Source of the DNA: a candidate division WOR-3 bacterium
Lineage (GTDB): Bacteria > Hydrothermota > Tepidihabitantia > SM23-42 > JAOAFX01
NCBI GenBank assembly: GCA_039802205.1
Contig: JBDRWD010000001.1
Span: forward strand, 13,658 to 77,657
Reading direction: 5' to 3'
Length of the DNA: 64,000 bases
The notes beneath the pieces were generated by a model. The model ran no database searches. It was not told where the DNA came from and saw only the letters and a program-made list of their open reading frames with translations. Of the stretch, positions 5,882 through 12,170 are shown one piece after another (within the stretch, counting starts at the first letter, position 1; each line of letters starts with the position of its first letter). A program made the position numbers and the translations under genes.

Positions 5882-6020
5882 TTTTGCCGAATTATCTGCC
5901 GCAAATAATCAAAACTCCTCCTTATTTCAACATATTAGCATTCTCTTAATGAAAAAATTCTTTTTTTTGGGATATTTAATTATGGTCCGGAAAAGCAAGA
6001 TTACTGTTGACACTGGGTAA

Positions 6021-9002
6021 TTGTTCAATATAATTAAGTATATGTTCGCTAAAATACTGACTAAAATTTTTGGCACCAAAACGGAACGCGAATTAAAACG
6101 ACTATGGCCTATTGTCGAAAAAATCAATTCCATCTATCCCAAACTTCAAGGAGTGGATTTAGTCAAAACTACTGAGGATTTTAAAAAAAGAATCGCCCAG
6201 GGCGAATCCCTTGATGACCTTTTGCCTGAAGCCTTTGCTCTGGTTAAAGAGGCTTGCCGGAGATTGGTGGGTAAGAAATGGCCGGTGGTGGAGATTGAAA
6301 CCGAATGGAATATGATTCCCTTCGATGTCCAGCTGATAGGCGGGATAGTTCTTCACGAAGGTAAAATTGCGGAGATGAAAACAGGGGAAGGGAAAACTTT
6401 GGTGGCGACGATGCCATTATATCTAAACGCATTGACCGGCCGGGGTGTTCATCTTGTTACGGTCAATGACTACCTGGCAAGGCGGGATAGAGAATGGATG
6501 GGCCCAGTCTATGAATCCTTAGGACTGACCGTCGGTGTTCTCCAGCAGGGGATGGAGACCCAACCGCGGAAAGAAGCGTATAATTGTGATATTACCTACG
6601 GCACAAACAACGAATTCGGTTTTGATTATCTTCGAGACAATATGGTTTGGAACTGGGAAGATAAAGTCCAACGGGGACATTATTATGCTATTGTCGATGA
6701 GGTAGATAGTATTCTGATTGACGAAGCAAGGACTCCATTAATTATTTCAGGTCCAGTAGAGAGAGAAACAAAAAGCTTTGACGAATTAAATCCCATTGTC
6801 CGTAGGCTCTATTCTGCTCAAACCGTGCTAGTAAACCAGATAGTTGAGGAGGCAAAAAAATTGCTCGAAGAAGGAAAAGAAAAAGAAGCAGGAATTAAAT
6901 TACTCCAGGCAAGACGGGGGGCACCAAAAAACAAACAACTTCTGAAATTAGAACAGGAAACTGGAATCAAACGGTTGATAGAAGAAACTGAATTGAATTT
7001 CATAAGAGAAAAAAGTTTTAGCAAAATTGATGAGGAATTATATTTTGTTATCGACGAAAGAATGCACATAGTCGATCTAACCGAAAAAGGCCGACTTTTC
7101 ATTTCACCCAATAACCCAGAAATGTTTGTTTTACCAGATTTGAGCGAAAAGATCGGCAGAATTGAACGGGATGAAAAATTATCGCCCAAGGAGAAATTCA
7201 TTGCTAAAGAAAAGGCTTTTGAAGAGTATGCTAAAAAAAGCGAGATTTTAGCAAATTTACGTGCCCTTTTAAGGGCTTATTCGCTTTTTGAGAAAGATGT
7301 TGAGTATGTTGTTCAGGAGGGAAAGGTAATAATTGTTGATGAGTTTACAGGCAGATTGATGCCAGGAAGGAGATTTTCTGATGGTTTACATCAAGCGCTT
7401 GAAGCAAAAGAAGGGGTGCGCGTTCAAGAAGAAACTCAAACTTTTGCAACAATAACAATACAGAATTATTTCCGGATGTATGAGAAACTGGCAGGGATGA
7501 CCGGGACTGCTGCTACTGAGGCGAATGAATTTTGGGAAATTTATAAACTGGATGTTGTGGAGATACCCACCAAAGAACCGGTACGCCGGATTGATTATGA
7601 AGACATTGTCTATCGTTCCAAAAGGGAAAAATACAATGCAGTCATTGAGGAAATTGTTAAATGGCATAAGGAAAAAAGACCCGTGCTGGTGGGAACTACC
7701 TCGGTAGAAGTTTCAGAGGTGCTTTCTCGACTTTTGCAGCGTAAAGGGATTCCTCACAATGTTTTGAATGCCAAACATCATCAGCGTGAGGCAGTAATTG
7801 TAGCGCAAGCAGGACAACCCGGAGCGGTTACAATTGCCACCAATATGGCAGGTCGAGGTACGGATATCAAACTTGGGCCTGGCGTGGTAAAATGTGATAA
7901 ATGTTGTATAAAATGTCCGGATCAGAATTGTGCTCAGTGTTCTCATGAATTTAAAAAAGAATGCTTTAAAGAAGTTCCTTGTGGACTTTATATCATTGGC
8001 ACCGAACGACATGAATCAAGAAGAATTGACAATCAGCTACGTGGTCGGAGCGGCCGACAAGGTGACCCCGGTTCTTCACGTTTCTTTCTATCTCTTGAAG
8101 ATGATTTAATGCGCATCTTTGGTTCTGATAGGGTTGCAGATATCATGGATCGCTTCGGAGGGGGGGACCAGAAACCACTTACCCATCCATTGGTTACTAA
8201 GGCGATTGCTAATGCCCAAAAAAGAGTAGAAGAAAATCATTTTGAAGTAAGAAAACATCTTCTGGAATATGATGATGTGATGAACCGGCAGCGCGAAATT
8301 ATTTATAAAATGCGCGATGAAATTCTTAAGGGTGAGAATTATGAGGAACTTATTTTTAGAAATTTTGAAACGACAATTGAAAACATTATTCTGAAATATA
8401 CCGATGAAAAAAAAGAATCAGAAGAATGGAATTGGGATGCTTTAATTGGTGAATTCAATCAATTATTTGCTACAAATTTCTTTTTGAGTAAAGACGAGCA
8501 GGCAAAAATAAAACAAACCGAATTATTTGATAGACTTTTGGAAAAAGCAAAAGAGGCGTATTACCAGCGGCGCCAGTACTATGAACCGGTAATGTTTAAG
8601 GAGATGTTGAAATCAATTCTGCTCCTTACCATAGATAATCGCTGGCGCGAACATCTCTATGCACTTGATGCCTTACGCGAAGGGATCAGCTGGCGGAGTT
8701 ATGCTCAAAAAGATCCATTGGTAGAATATAAACAAGAATCATTTAAGATGTTTGATGAACTTTTAAATGAAATCGCTCGCGATGTTTCTGGGATTGTTTT
8801 CCGTGCAACTCCCAAACCGGTAACGCGGAAACCTCTCGTAACTGTTGAGTACAAACCCACTCTTGATAGCGAAAATGATGCAAAGGTTGAAATGATTAAA
8901 CCCCAAACTCAGGTTCGAATGCAAAAAGTAGGAAGGAACGATCCATGTCCATGCGGAAGCGGAAAGAAATATAAAAAATGTTGCGGTAGGAACATTGGAT
9001 GA
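6021..9002 (+). CDS. secA: preprotein translocase ATPase SecA. A second Met at 6042 ([11 protein letters not shown]) may be the true start.
   Basis: Canonical SecA N-terminus ([14 protein letters not shown]), DEAD-like motor motifs ([60 protein letters not shown]) and a C-terminal Zn finger ([14 protein letters not shown]). Confidence 0.92.
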
Positions 9003-10102
9003 AACCCTATCAAGTAAATCTCTTTGCAGAAGAAGAAAAACCAATAATCTTTTTACCATCCGAACCTGTATTTGTTTATAACAATAAAAAATATTTAAAT
9101 TTTTCTTTAGCAGATTGTTTTAATCGCCGTAATAATGAATACTTAATCGAAAATGCAAAACTTAATTTTAACAATCGAAATATTGTAGACATTCGAGATC
9201 CTGACGGTTATCTTGATGCCTTGAAAAAGGTGATGATTGATTTTAAAAAACTGGATTCAATATGTATTTTTTCTGATGAAATATCGGCAGTTTATGCAAT
9301 CAGCTCAATTTTTAGTTCAAAAGTTACATTTTTTCTTGATGCCGAAACTTCTCCTCAGCTGAATGCGCTTCTCAAATATCGAAATGTAGAGTATTATAAC
9401 CATAAAGATATGGAGAGTTTTGCTAAACTTTTAGCTGTACATTCGGAAAAAGTGGTGATCATAGACGGTCTTTATGAATGGTTAGGTTATGCTGCTCCTG
9501 TTAGTGATATTTTGAAGGTTGCCAAGGAAAATCAGGCTACGGTGATTGCTAACGAAATAAATTCTTTTGGTCTTCTTGGGCGGGATGGTCGGGGCATAAT
9601 GGACCTTTATAATCTTTATGATGAAGTAAATATCGAGCTTGGTAGCTTCAGTCGGCATCTAGGAGGTTATGGCGCATATATCGGAGCTAAAAAATATTTG
9701 ATTAACAAAATAATTGAACATACAAACGACATGTTCATGCCAGTTCCGAAATTTATGCTCGCAGTGAATATCGCAAGTATTGAGATGTTAAAAAATGAAT
9801 CCAAAAACCGGAACGATTTTTCCAGGATGTGGGCAAATAGCCGGTTTTTCATAAACCGTTTGAAACAGATTGGTTTAAGGACACTTAGCGAAACTCCGGT
9901 GGTGGTCCTTATTTTAAACAATAACCAAGAAGCAGAATTATTGAGGCAACGACTCTTTGCCGACGGGATAATTGCCAGTGTCAATAGAGAAAGATTACGG
10001 TTTATCCTTTCCATTGAGCATTCAAAATCGGATCTTGAATATACCCTTGATAGGATTGAGGCTCATTTTAAAGATATGGCAATCATCTATCCTAATACCT
10101 AA
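8999..10102 (+). CDS. alpha-oxoamine synthase (BioF/KBL class-II aminotransferase)-like protein with a degenerate PLP site; probable pseudoenzyme
   Basis: The ATGA start/stop overlaps the secA stop, which indicates translational coupling. The fold motifs align to the AOS family (…YLNFS…, …GLLGRDGRG…, …[16 protein letters not shown]…). The PLP-stacking His is Asn (ANEIN) and the Schiff-base Lys is Arg (SFSRHLG). Confidence 0.5.
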
Positions 10103-10154
10103 ACCTTGACGAATTTGGAATTTTGATTATACTCTATGTTTGAAAGGAGGTTAA

Positions 10155-12170
10155 ATGGTTACAATATTAACTATTTGGGTTATTAGTTTTCTGCCGCAGG
10201 AATATATTAATTTGGTAATGAGAGAAGAATATGAAGCGGCAGAAGAATATTGCAAAAAGATGATGGAAAAAAGCTCTGATTTTAAGTGGTATTTAGAATT
10301 AGGAGACCTTTATTTTGACAAACTTGACGAACCAATAAAAGCCAAACAGGTCTATCAAAATATTATTGACAAATATCCCCAGAAAGACGGGTGGGTATAT
10401 TATCGATTGGGTTTGGTATTGGAGACCCTTGAAGATTATCTAAATGCAGCCCGTACCTATGAAATAGTAGCGACTCGTTATCGGAATCCACCCCTTGATT
10501 CATTTGCGCTTTCCGGTGTAGAACGTTGCTTTAAAAAGAATTATCAGGATACCGTGGCAGTCGTTGATGGCTACCGGATTACGCGTCTGGAACTTGATGA
10601 AAGAATGGCAAAACAATCGCCTTTTGCCAAAAAAGATGAAAAAGGGACGCTTGACCAGATGATACTGGAACGTCTTCTTTATGTTCAAGCAATCAAGAAT
10701 AATGTAAAAGCAACTAAGGAATACAAAAACGCGCTAAAACAAACAAGGGTCAGTGCCCTGCTTGACGAAGTGAGAGCGATAAATGTATTAGCCAAAGCGA
10801 TTCCTACGGAAAAAGAAATGCGTAATTATTACAAGAAGAATAAACATTTTTATAAACTCTCCAAAGAAGTAAGAGGAAAAGAAATTGTTGTAGAATCCGA
10901 AAGTCTTGCCGTTCTTATTCGAGATTCGCTTTTGAAGGACCAACAAAGTTTTGACACCCTCGCAAAACTTTATTCAACTGCACCCACCAAAGGGGGGGGA
11001 GGCGAGATGGGTATTGTGATTCCGGGAACCAAACCTAAAGAGGTGGAAGATGTGCTGTTTAGTATTAAATTAAATACCATCTCGGATATAGTTAAGTTCG
11101 AGAATAAATTCGGGATCTATTTGGTATACGAACGCAAACCCGAGAGGTGGCGTGCTTATGATGAGGTAAAAACCCAGGTGGAAGCCGCGGTGCGGGCGGA
11201 AAAAATCCAAAAACAAGAAGAAAAATTTTTAAAAGATCTTAAGGCCAAAGCAAAGATTGAAATATTCAAAGATAGTATTATCACCGATTCCACCCAGAAA
11301 TCATCTACGAGAATTGTTGCACTGGTTAACAATCGGCCTATCAAATTCCAAGATGTGGAAACCAAAAACTCCTCACAACCAATGTTTGCCCGGCTTGATA
11401 TCTCCCAACCAGAGGAGTTTGAAAAAGTTTTGGAGTCATTGATTGAAGAGGAACTGAAATTGGAACTTGCCGAGCGGAATAAGTACTATCTTAACGATGG
11501 TTTTATCACCAAATACCAGGAGGGTATGAAACGCGCTTTGGAACAAGCGCTTTATACCAAGATGGTTATCGAAAATGCTAAAGTTGATTCTCAGGAGGTG
11601 GCAGATTATTATCAACAACATAAAGAAGAGATGAAAATACTTGAGACGATAAGGTGTAAAGAGATTGTCGTCCACAAAAAAGAAGAAGCTGAAAGGATTC
11701 GCAGTGAACTTGCAAAATACTACGGAGAAAAGAAATCATTTATTCCATTTCTAAGTAAGAGAGCAAAAATTAAAGATTTCACCATGTTTGATTCTTTGGC
11801 TAAAACTTACTCTACCGCCTACAATAAGTCCCGAGGCGGGGATACCGGTCCCTTAAAGCGAGGCTCAAGACCTAAGGAGTTTGAAGAAGTTGCATGGAAA
11901 TTAAAAATTGGAGAGCTGAGCAAGGTATTTTTAGTAGGTGATTCAAACTGGACAATTCTCACCAAAATTGAACATAACCCAGCTCGTTATCGGACATTCG
12001 AAGAGGTAAAAGCCTCGATTGAAATGAATCTATTGCGCGAAAAACAGCGTAAGATTGCTGACGATTATCTTGCTAAAATCAAGAATGAAGCGGATATCAA
12101 GATTATGCTGCCCGAACCGGTACCCGAAGAAGCGAAACCCGAAAATACCGAAACACAACCTAAAGAATAA
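10155..12170 (+). CDS. periplasmic PpiC/parvulin-type peptidyl-prolyl isomerase with two parvulin domains and an N-terminal TPR-like region (SurA/PpiD-like chaperone)
   Basis: Two rotamase-like segments (…GGGGEMGIVIPGTKPKEVEDVLFSIKLNTISDIVKFENKFGIYLV… and …RGGDTGPLKRGSRPKEFEEVAWKLKIGELSKVFLVGDSNWTILTKIE…). Hydrophobic N-terminus. Strong RBS (AAAGGAGG). Confidence 0.6.
   Translation: MVTILTIWVISFLPQEYINLVMREEYEAAEEYCKKMMEKSSDFKWYLELGDLYFDKLDEPIKAKQVYQNIIDKYPQKDGWVYYRLGLVLETLEDYLNAARTYEIVATRYRNPPLDSFALSGVERCFKKNYQDTVAVVDGYRITRLELDERMAKQSPFAKKDEKGTLDQMILERLLYVQAIKNNVKATKEYKNALKQTRVSALLDEVRAINVLAKAIPTEKEMRNYYKKNKHFYKLSKEVRGKEIVVESESLAVLIRDSLLKDQQSFDTLAKLYSTAPTKGGGGEMGIVIPGTKPKEVEDVLFSIKLNTISDIVKFENKFGIYLVYERKPERWRAYDEVKTQVEAAVRAEKIQKQEEKFLKDLKAKAKIEIFKDSIITDSTQKSSTRIVALVNNRPIKFQDVETKNSSQPMFARLDISQPEEFEKVLESLIEEELKLELAERNKYYLNDGFITKYQEGMKRALEQALYTKMVIENAKVDSQEVADYYQQHKEEMKILETIRCKEIVVHKKEEAERIRSELAKYYGEKKSFIPFLSKRAKIKDFTMFDSLAKTYSTAYNKSRGGDTGPLKRGSRPKEFEEVAWKLKIGELSKVFLVGDSNWTILTKIEHNPARYRTFEEVKASIEMNLLREKQRKIADDYLAKIKNEADIKIMLPEPVPEEAKPENTETQPKE

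Follow-up and report, generated by a model that had tools for sequence, protein, structure and literature searches.

A secA-coupled family of alpha-oxoamine-synthase-like proteins without an intact cofactor site in candidate division WOR-3 bacteria

The secA locus of the window

The sequence analysed here (the window) is a stretch of 64,000 nt from contig JBDRWD010000001.1 (assembly GCA_039802205.1) of a candidate division WOR-3 bacterium. On its forward strand, secA (6042..9002) is followed directly by an open reading frame (ORF; 8999..10102) for a 367 aa protein that homology and a structural model relate to the alpha-oxoamine synthases (AOS), and that lacks their pyridoxal 5′-phosphate (PLP) site. 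This AOS-like protein is referred to below as AOSL, and the family of close homologues to which it belongs as clade A. The two genes share the tetranucleotide ATGA (8999..9002), in which the AOSL start codon (8999–9001) overlaps the secA stop codon TGA (9000–9002), as claimed in the original prediction, which had been made by a model from the sequence alone. A lone ATGA overlap is ordinary; three or more further gene pairs of the window also overlap by 4 nt.

The mechanically called secA ORF (993 codons) begins at a TTG at 6021. A perfect match (12/12) to a consensus sigma-70 type promoter, TTGACA-16-TATAAT, lies upstream of the gene at 6007..6034 (+) and is its putative promoter. Since the TTG falls inside this promoter, translation probably begins at the ATG at 6042. 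This gives the 986 aa of an identical (100 %) NCBI protein (P0345) that has the Pfam domains of SecA and is entered under that name for a candidate division WOR-3 bacterium. The TATAAT ends 7 nt before this ATG, with no Shine–Dalgarno (SD) sequence between them, which implies a leaderless or near-leaderless secA mRNA. Likewise, TTGAC(A/T)-N16/17-TATAAT is found from a few to approximately 17 nt before the secA start in most of the 37 clade A loci that include the 5′ end of secA; outside clade A (loci L040, L041 and L046–L049) the match is weaker or absent.

At the other end of secA, the codons of the SecA C-terminal metal-binding motif (8940..8984, +) end 15 nt before the AOSL start. Next comes an SD-like TAGGA (8987..8991, +), which lies in the Gly-Arg-Asn codons that close secA and is separated from the AOSL ATG by 7 nt. 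No terminator-like site was found on the forward strand between the two genes in the window. The metal-binding motif is present at all 42 loci from which it was extracted, with single-residue variants in L021, L022 and L030. The SecA of L022 (TA06 DG_78, contig LJNI01000045.1) additionally has an extra tail of approximately 14 residues after CCGKNV, ending SSLSSNGRDVT.

Homology and predicted fold of AOSL

The database entry 100 % identical to AOSL (P0001) is named ‘hypothetical protein ABIL39_00105’ and comes from a candidate division WOR-3 metagenome-assembled genome (MAG). Among NCBIfam models the best match is TIGR01825 (BioF/Kbl family; E=7e-33), at 113.8 bits against a curated cutoff of 535.4; the bioF, SPT and KBL models also match, every score being far under its curated cutoff. 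The closest solved relatives in a PDB sequence search are the SPT of S. paucimobilis (2jg2, E=2e-20) and ThAOS of Thermus. An AlphaFold 2 (AF2) model built from 71 family sequences has a mean predicted local distance difference test score (pLDDT) of 84.8 and a predicted template-modelling (TM) score of 0.83. Foldseek aligns it to ThAOS (8s1y) and SPT (2jg2) with a TM-score of 0.83 (E=3e-25), and it superposes on the structures of ThAOS, SPT, KBL, BioF and ALAS with TM-scores of approximately 0.8. By this model, AOSL has the fold-type I PLP fold with the AOS-type domain arrangement, i.e. the fold and domain order of the active enzymes BioF, KBL, SPT, ALAS, CqsA and ThAOS (TM-score 0.83). It also shares with them the motifs GxxGxxGRG, S(E/Q)TP and RxR...H(S/T), as well as W278. 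The AOS-like assignment of the original prediction is thus borne out by TIGR01825, 2jg2 and the fold comparison. The Pfam scan that it had proposed returned no match of the ORF at E≤1, to PF00155 or to any other family, however, and it is the NCBIfam, PDB and fold searches that establish the homology.

No transmembrane segment is predicted (the maximum Kyte–Doolittle mean over 19 residues is 1.46), and the protein is mildly acidic, with an isoelectric point of 6.1 against a family median of 5.7. Its N-terminus is a nearly invariant peptide, MKPYQV(N/H)LF (8999..9025, +). Q5 and F9 do not vary across the 71 aligned sequences, and M1, K2, P3, Y4 and L8 are each conserved in at least 90 % of them. 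The peptide is predicted to be disordered, residues 2–12 having a pLDDT below 50. Third-codon positions within it vary (AAA/AAG, CCA/CCC/CCT/CCG), and therefore the constraint acts on the peptide; a constraint at the RNA level was rejected on the same grounds.

Replacement of the cofactor site

Substitutions in AOSL were taken from a HMMER alignment to 2jg2 and are given against SPT chain numbering. We take D231 of SPT to pair with the pyridine nitrogen of PLP, H234 to hydrogen bond to O3′, K265 to form the Schiff base, H159 to stack on the PLP ring and T133-G134 to form the phosphate loop. All of these positions are changed in the window protein. In the segment corresponding to VLVDEAHSMG, D231 and H234 are replaced by Asn185 and Asn188, the Asp-Glu/Asp-Ala-His of the enzymes becoming Asn185-Glu186-Ile187-Asn188 (9551..9562, +); Asn185 and Glu186 are present in 71/71 family members and Asn188 in 64/71. 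The SPT sequence GTFSKSVG corresponds to GSFSRHLG, in which K265 is replaced by Arg219 (CGG, 9653..9655, +). H159 aligns with Ser118 of the pair Thr117-Ser118 (9347..9352, +; Thr in 70/71, Ser in 62/71, or 87 %), and the Thr-Gly of the phosphate-binding S-T-G-Y aligns with Asp93-Glu94 (9275..9280, +; Asp in 67/71, Glu in 68/71). Pocket loops are also missing across the family in comparison with canonical enzymes: a PxVPxG loop of approximately 8 residues just before Arg330, 3 residues after the position of the stacking His, and 5–8 residues of the N-terminal glycine loop. Directly after the first of these deletions a run of basic residues is retained, Arg330-Glu-Arg332-Leu-Arg334 (9986..10000, +), aligned with R378 and R390, the carboxylate-binding arginines of SPT. 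Arg332 is found in 70/71 members, Arg334 in 68/71, and position 330 is Lys or Arg.

At the position of the Schiff-base Lys the 71 sequences have 36 Lys, 33 Arg, one Gln and one Thr, so that it is basic in 69/71. On a neighbour-joining tree this position has changed at least 14 times, against a family median of 12 changes per site, while positions 185 and 186 have not changed at all. It behaves as a position for any basic residue, free of the constraint on a catalytic lysine, and the Lys found in half of clade A would be one state of a neutral Arg–Lys exchange.

Relative to the AOS enzymes, then, AOSL has replaced the phosphate loop, the Asp and the two His residues of the PLP site and has lost active-site loops; the window protein has exchanged the Lys as well. 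Because the four PLP-ligating side chains are replaced, the loops are deleted and the Lys position drifts between Lys and Arg, a PLP-dependent condensing enzyme is very unlikely, and AOSL is in all likelihood non-catalytic for AOS chemistry. The original prediction had found PLP catalysis hard to reconcile with two substitutions, and the Asp-to-Asn, His-to-Ser and Thr-Gly-to-Asp-Glu changes and the loop deletions strengthen that view. Its replacement of the Schiff-base Lys by Arg is correct for the window and holds for fewer than half of the family members. It had also reported that the PLP-stacking His is Asn; the Asn is there (H234 to Asn188), although the stacking role was misassigned, the stacking His being H159, which is Ser118 here.

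A discrete family under purifying selection

A search of 5.8 billion proteins returned 73 close homologues (43–100 % identity), and the next match scored only 68 bits. A profile search of 1.84 billion representatives clustered at 50 % identity gave one sequence at 568 bits, with the next at 181 bits. These gaps in sequence similarity indicate that AOSL is a discrete, unnamed family. Across its 71 aligned members 38 columns are invariant, and Nei–Gojobori dN/dS among close orthologues is 0.02–0.16, which signifies strong purifying selection and therefore a selected, functional protein. A decaying pseudogene is ruled out by the same two observations.

Where the 39 loci recovered from other genomes have named taxa these are WOR-3, ‘Stahlbacteria’ and one ‘TA06’ MAG, the rest being labelled ‘bacterium’ or ‘uncultured bacterium’. 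Database names of members range from ‘hypothetical’ to ‘aminotransferase class I/II-fold PLP-dependent enzyme’, glycine C-acetyltransferase and 7-keto-8-aminopelargonate (KAPA) synthetase-like; members with enzyme labels in JGI or NCBI include P0034, P0038, P0043 and P0048. The enzyme names are very probably wrong, and would falsely credit WOR-3 genomes with steps in biotin, threonine or sphingolipid metabolism and so distort metabolic reconstructions.

Conservation of the position after secA

With one genome scanned for each GTDB species, 39 AOSL loci were recovered, or 40 with the window. In every one of the 39, as in the window, secA lies immediately upstream. The junction is ATGA at 34 of the 40 loci, TAATG at three and TAGnATG at three, with stop and start always within 4 nt. 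Two further, more divergent groups (clades B and C, described below) bring the total to 44/44 junctions with secA directly upstream; the gap does not exceed 4 nt in clade A (40 loci), and is 0–1 nt in clade C and 12–14 nt in clade B. An AGGA, GGAG or GAGG is located 5–18 nt upstream of the AOSL start at 36 of the 44 junctions, within the codons for the terminal Gly-Arg(AGG)-Asn of SecA. The genes on either side of the pair vary: sucCD, lipB-lipA and others are found upstream, and a PpiD/SurA-like peptidyl-prolyl isomerase (PPIase), trmI, a patatin, an Aminotran_4 protein and others downstream. Adjacency to secA in related genomes had been named as a check when the locus was first noted; it is found in 40/40 clade A loci and extends to clades B and C. 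The coupling to secA is conserved, beyond an incidental ATGA overlap.

Clades B and C and the intact relatives

Clade B is the group of the 181 bit profile match (P0077). Its 385 aa protein is approximately 27 % identical to the window AOSL and approximately 42 % identical to canonical KBL. It shares with AOSL an N-terminal Q-x-x-L-F-E-E, the motif FP-x-D-x-S-A and the 3-residue deletion. The Lys is lost (Arg or His), as are both His, while the Asp and the PxVPxG loop are kept. At both of the loci recovered the gene begins 12–14 nt after secA, with its own SD sequence and a TTG start. Clade C was found by going below the 71 % step in SecA identity, and consists of an AOS-like gene with Lys replaced by Tyr, directly after secA at 2/2 loci. 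The L131 protein (391 aa, matching PF00155) starts 1 nt after secA. The L049 protein (321 aa) starts immediately after the secA stop and has also exchanged the stacking His for Arg. At both clade C loci (L131, 8221–9569; L049, 9027–10390) the AOS-like gene is followed by a class IV aminotransferase (Aminotran_4) and rpiB, unlike in clades A and B. Clades B and C can be placed in WOR-3 tentatively, as their SecA is similar and they have neighbouring genes in common with it, for example smpB and amidase_3. Identity between the AOSL clades is only 23–27 %, with the position after secA kept.

The nearest intact relatives (P0232 and P0235) are KBL-like, with SGF, NHAS, DDAH and LSK all present, and follow a gene of the zinc-dependent alcohol dehydrogenase family (PF08240/PF00107) that can be read as tdh, making a tdh-kbl pair. 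These relatives thus keep both the site and the tdh-like neighbour of the tdh-kbl operon, whereas clades B and C have lost the Lys and clade A the whole site. The ancestor of the secA-linked family was likely a KBL-type enzyme, because the nearest intact relatives of clade B (approximately 42 % identity) are KBL-like. Among 80 metagenome loci with AOS homologues (553 kb; 30–37 % identical to the clade B query, taken irrespective of their active-site residues), none had secA within 4.5 kb. These loci came from a metagenome scan with the clade B alignment, which picked up generic patterns and gave AOS homologues only and no new clade B loci. Natural SecA–AOS fusions were looked for among the long profile matches (P0079, P0080, P0121, P0161, P0163 and P0219) and rejected, each carrying PLP-fold Pfam domains only, in two PF00155 stretches.

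As judged from these sequences, the secA-linked degenerate clades show a graded erosion of the PLP cradle: Lys to Tyr in clade C, Lys to Arg or His with loss of the His residues in clade B, and replacement of the whole site in clade A. The most parsimonious account would be that catalysis was lost early, that a non-catalytic function tied to the position was kept, and that the cofactor site then decayed at differing rates.

A possible role with SecA

The reading favoured here is that AOSL is a soluble, cytoplasmic, non-catalytic AOS-fold protein that is co-expressed with SecA and acts in protein export, a proposal whose chances we regard as evenly balanced. That the function of AOSL is linked to SecA or to export in some form is slightly favoured; that AOSL is a direct physical partner of SecA, as the gene order suggests, is more doubtful. 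AOSL would be made from the secA mRNA, transcribed from the promoter ahead of secA. Ribosomes ending secA would re-initiate on the overlapping ATG, aided by the SD-like sequence in the last secA codons, and such termination–reinitiation would yield co-expression of AOSL and SecA, perhaps in stoichiometric amounts. The original prediction had put forward both stoichiometric synthesis and a structural or accessory role at the translocase, which the gene order makes plausible candidates. The selected role would be non-enzymatic, either as an accessory or regulatory subunit that binds SecA or as an export chaperone, adaptor or holding factor. Candidate contacts on AOSL are the conserved disordered N-terminal peptide and/or the acidic face of the former active site, which would be lined by Asp93, Glu94, Glu116, Glu160 and Glu186. 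On SecA they are the basic zinc-finger tail encoded at the junction, or a lineage-specific Cys-rich insertion in nucleotide-binding domain 2 (NBD2; see below). A more specific form of the proposal, which we consider unlikely as it stands, is that a PLP-enzyme fold was exapted as a subunit of the Sec motor: a stoichiometric SecA-binding protein of WOR-3 that regulates the SecA ATPase or, like SecB, targets or holds export substrates. On this view loss of the Lys (clade C) preceded decay of the remaining cofactor site (clades B and A), since only the scaffold mattered.

Several observations weigh against the favoured reading. Gene order within one phylum can persist in part by descent. Four loci (L046, L047, L048 and L130), whose SecA is 64–66 % identical and two of which are named WOR-3, have no AOSL after secA; the protein is therefore dispensable or replaceable in one WOR-3 clade. 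Of the clade C proteins, that of L131 departs from these canonical motifs only at the Lys, which is Tyr; SGY, D-x-x-H and the stacking His are all retained. The original prediction had named a Lys elsewhere in the active-site loop as evidence that would count against it; half of clade A does have a Lys, at the canonical position itself, but these members, too, have lost the remainder of the PLP site. The conserved Arg and Lys residues at the carboxylate-arginine positions of SPT could mark a site for a small molecule and not for a protein, and some members may retain residual ligand or PLP binding.

These last points raise the possibility that AOSL is a small-molecule binder, sensing or sequestering an amino acid, a B6 vitamer or an acyl-CoA/ACP in a remodelled pocket, and either signalling the metabolic state to SecA or acting independently of it. 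The retention of Arg332 and Arg334, of Lys or Arg at position 330 and of a basic residue at the Lys position in 69/71 sequences would suit such a role; the invariant Asn185-Glu186 suggests a specific polar site; and L131, in which nearly the whole PLP cradle is kept with only Lys to Tyr, resembles a binder unable to form the internal aldimine. However, the phosphate loop of clade A is Asp-Glu, its stacking His is Ser and three pocket loops are shortened. Additionally, no ligand can be named, and the pocket differs among clades A, B and C more than conserved binding would predict. A binder is quite unlikely.

The gene could instead be a hitch-hiker, held after secA by phylogenetic inertia and a strong housekeeping promoter, with a role unrelated to export. 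All loci come from one phylum-level lineage, 4 nt overlaps are common and one clade has lost the gene at this position, all of which such an origin would accommodate. It accounts poorly for a junction that stays within 4 nt while both flanks have been rearranged many times, for an unchanged position across clades that have diverged to 23–27 % identity, and for the persistence within secA of the AGG (Arg) codon from which the SD sequence is built. Simple hitch-hiking seems decidedly improbable.

A further alternative is a silent subunit of the kind seen in eukaryotic SPT, the core of which is a heterodimer whose LCB1 (SPTLC1) chain is without the PLP lysine and further key residues (PMC3794620). 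LCB1 shows that a ‘dead’ AOS fold can remain useful, selection having preserved it as a regulatory or structural subunit. AOSL resembles it in being under selection and in keeping the AOS fold despite the loss of the PLP lysine and of other important positions. LCB1 chains are also found among the sequence and structure matches of AOSL. On such a model AOSL would be the silent half of a heterodimer, its partner being an active AOS paralogue from another part of the genome; it would contribute residues in trans to a single active site, and owe its place after secA to expression only. The motifs SETP, GxxGRxGRG and ERxR..EH(S/T), which AOSL keeps, lie at the subunit interface in AOS dimers. However, no second AOS homologue is encoded in the window or in the flanks of the secA–AOSL pairs (up to 6–8 kb per side, contig permitting), the loop with the in-trans residue of SPT (N100 region) is shortened in AOSL, and the attachment to secA of only the degenerate clades is left unexplained. 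LCB1 differs in being membrane-bound and paired with an active LCB2, whereas AOSL has no transmembrane segment, no paralogue nearby and secA as its conserved neighbour. A silent subunit of this type is very unlikely. An active enzyme with new PLP-independent or differently anchored chemistry is highly improbable: strong purifying selection and the retention of N185, E186, T117 and Y159-E160-W161 at the former active site would allow it, but no candidate catalytic residue in the old site is common to clades A, B and C, the Lys position drifts, biosynthetic neighbours are not conserved, and no case of an AOS fold that catalyses a reaction without its cofactor is known to us.

Relation to known systems

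The context of AOSL is secA, unlike the biotin, threonine, haem or sphingolipid settings of AOS enzymes. Among known SecA-associated proteins the likeness to SecB, offered as an idea only, is that of a mildly acidic, soluble protein beside a SecA with a canonical basic tail. We take SecB to bind the C-terminal zinc-finger tail of SecA, and AOSL would, like it, be oligomeric if the usual AOS dimer is kept. AOSL differs in having no sequence or fold similarity to SecB, its fold being that of AOS. No likeness to SecB, Syd or SecM was found, all sequence and fold matches of AOSL being AOS enzymes. To our knowledge, there is no conserved stop/start overlap between secA and secB. SecA partners outside the Proteobacteria are poorly known. 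The zinc-finger tail of SecA is conserved in phyla without SecB. An AOSL gene coupled to secA in WOR-3 is a concrete candidate for a new SecA-associated factor, a partner or regulator of export.

Searches of the literature turned up neither a linkage between secA and an AOS gene, nor a family of AOS pseudoenzymes in bacteria, nor any secA-linked PLP-fold gene. SecA, biotin and sphingolipids go unmentioned in a paper on WOR-3 genomics (PMC12542636). A pseudoenzyme in the AOS family is as such already known (LCB1/SPTLC1), while a secA-linked bacterial family is undescribed in the literature found. For enzymologists the clades offer a natural series from a fold-type I PLP enzyme to a non-enzyme, running from Lys to Tyr in an intact cradle to the loss of the whole site and its loops.

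Other features of the secA loci

The Cys-rich insertion in NBD2 follows GRGTDI and comprises SecA residues 615–648 (counted from ATG 6042; window 7884–7985). Its pattern is C-x2-CC-x2-C-x4-C-x2-C-x-H-x5-C-x5-PCG, with eight Cys and one His in the window, which might bind a metal or an Fe-S cluster. Every AOSL-bearing locus has the 8-Cys pattern except L022, where the insertion is degenerate, yet the ATGA overlap with AOSL is kept. The His is missing in clade C, and in the AOSL-less clade the pattern is reduced to four to five Cys. This distribution is only suggestive of a co-evolving docking site for AOSL, as it amounts to one or two evolutionary events. No description of a Cys-rich insertion in SecA NBD2 was found in the literature search.

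Downstream of AOSL in the window, after 52 nt, lies a gene (10155..12170, +) for the PpiD/SurA-like PPIase, a 671 aa protein with tetratricopeptide repeat (TPR), SurA-N and PPIC-type PPIase regions. The protein, which resembles the periplasmic chaperones PpiD and SurA, has two PPIC-type stretches, and the gene is preceded by its own promoter-like site at 10106–10133. The order secA-AOSL-PPIase is confined to the sub-clade of the window (8 loci).

In the AOSL-less clade the slot after secA is occupied by a gene for a conserved 131–138 aa protein with an N-terminal transmembrane helix, a charged, coiled-coil-like tail and no Pfam match (L046, 7994–8410; L047, 8019–8414; L048, 7998–8414; L130, 7116–7529). 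An NfeD/S49 protease gene comes next, on the opposite strand. The small transmembrane protein may be another SecA-linked factor.

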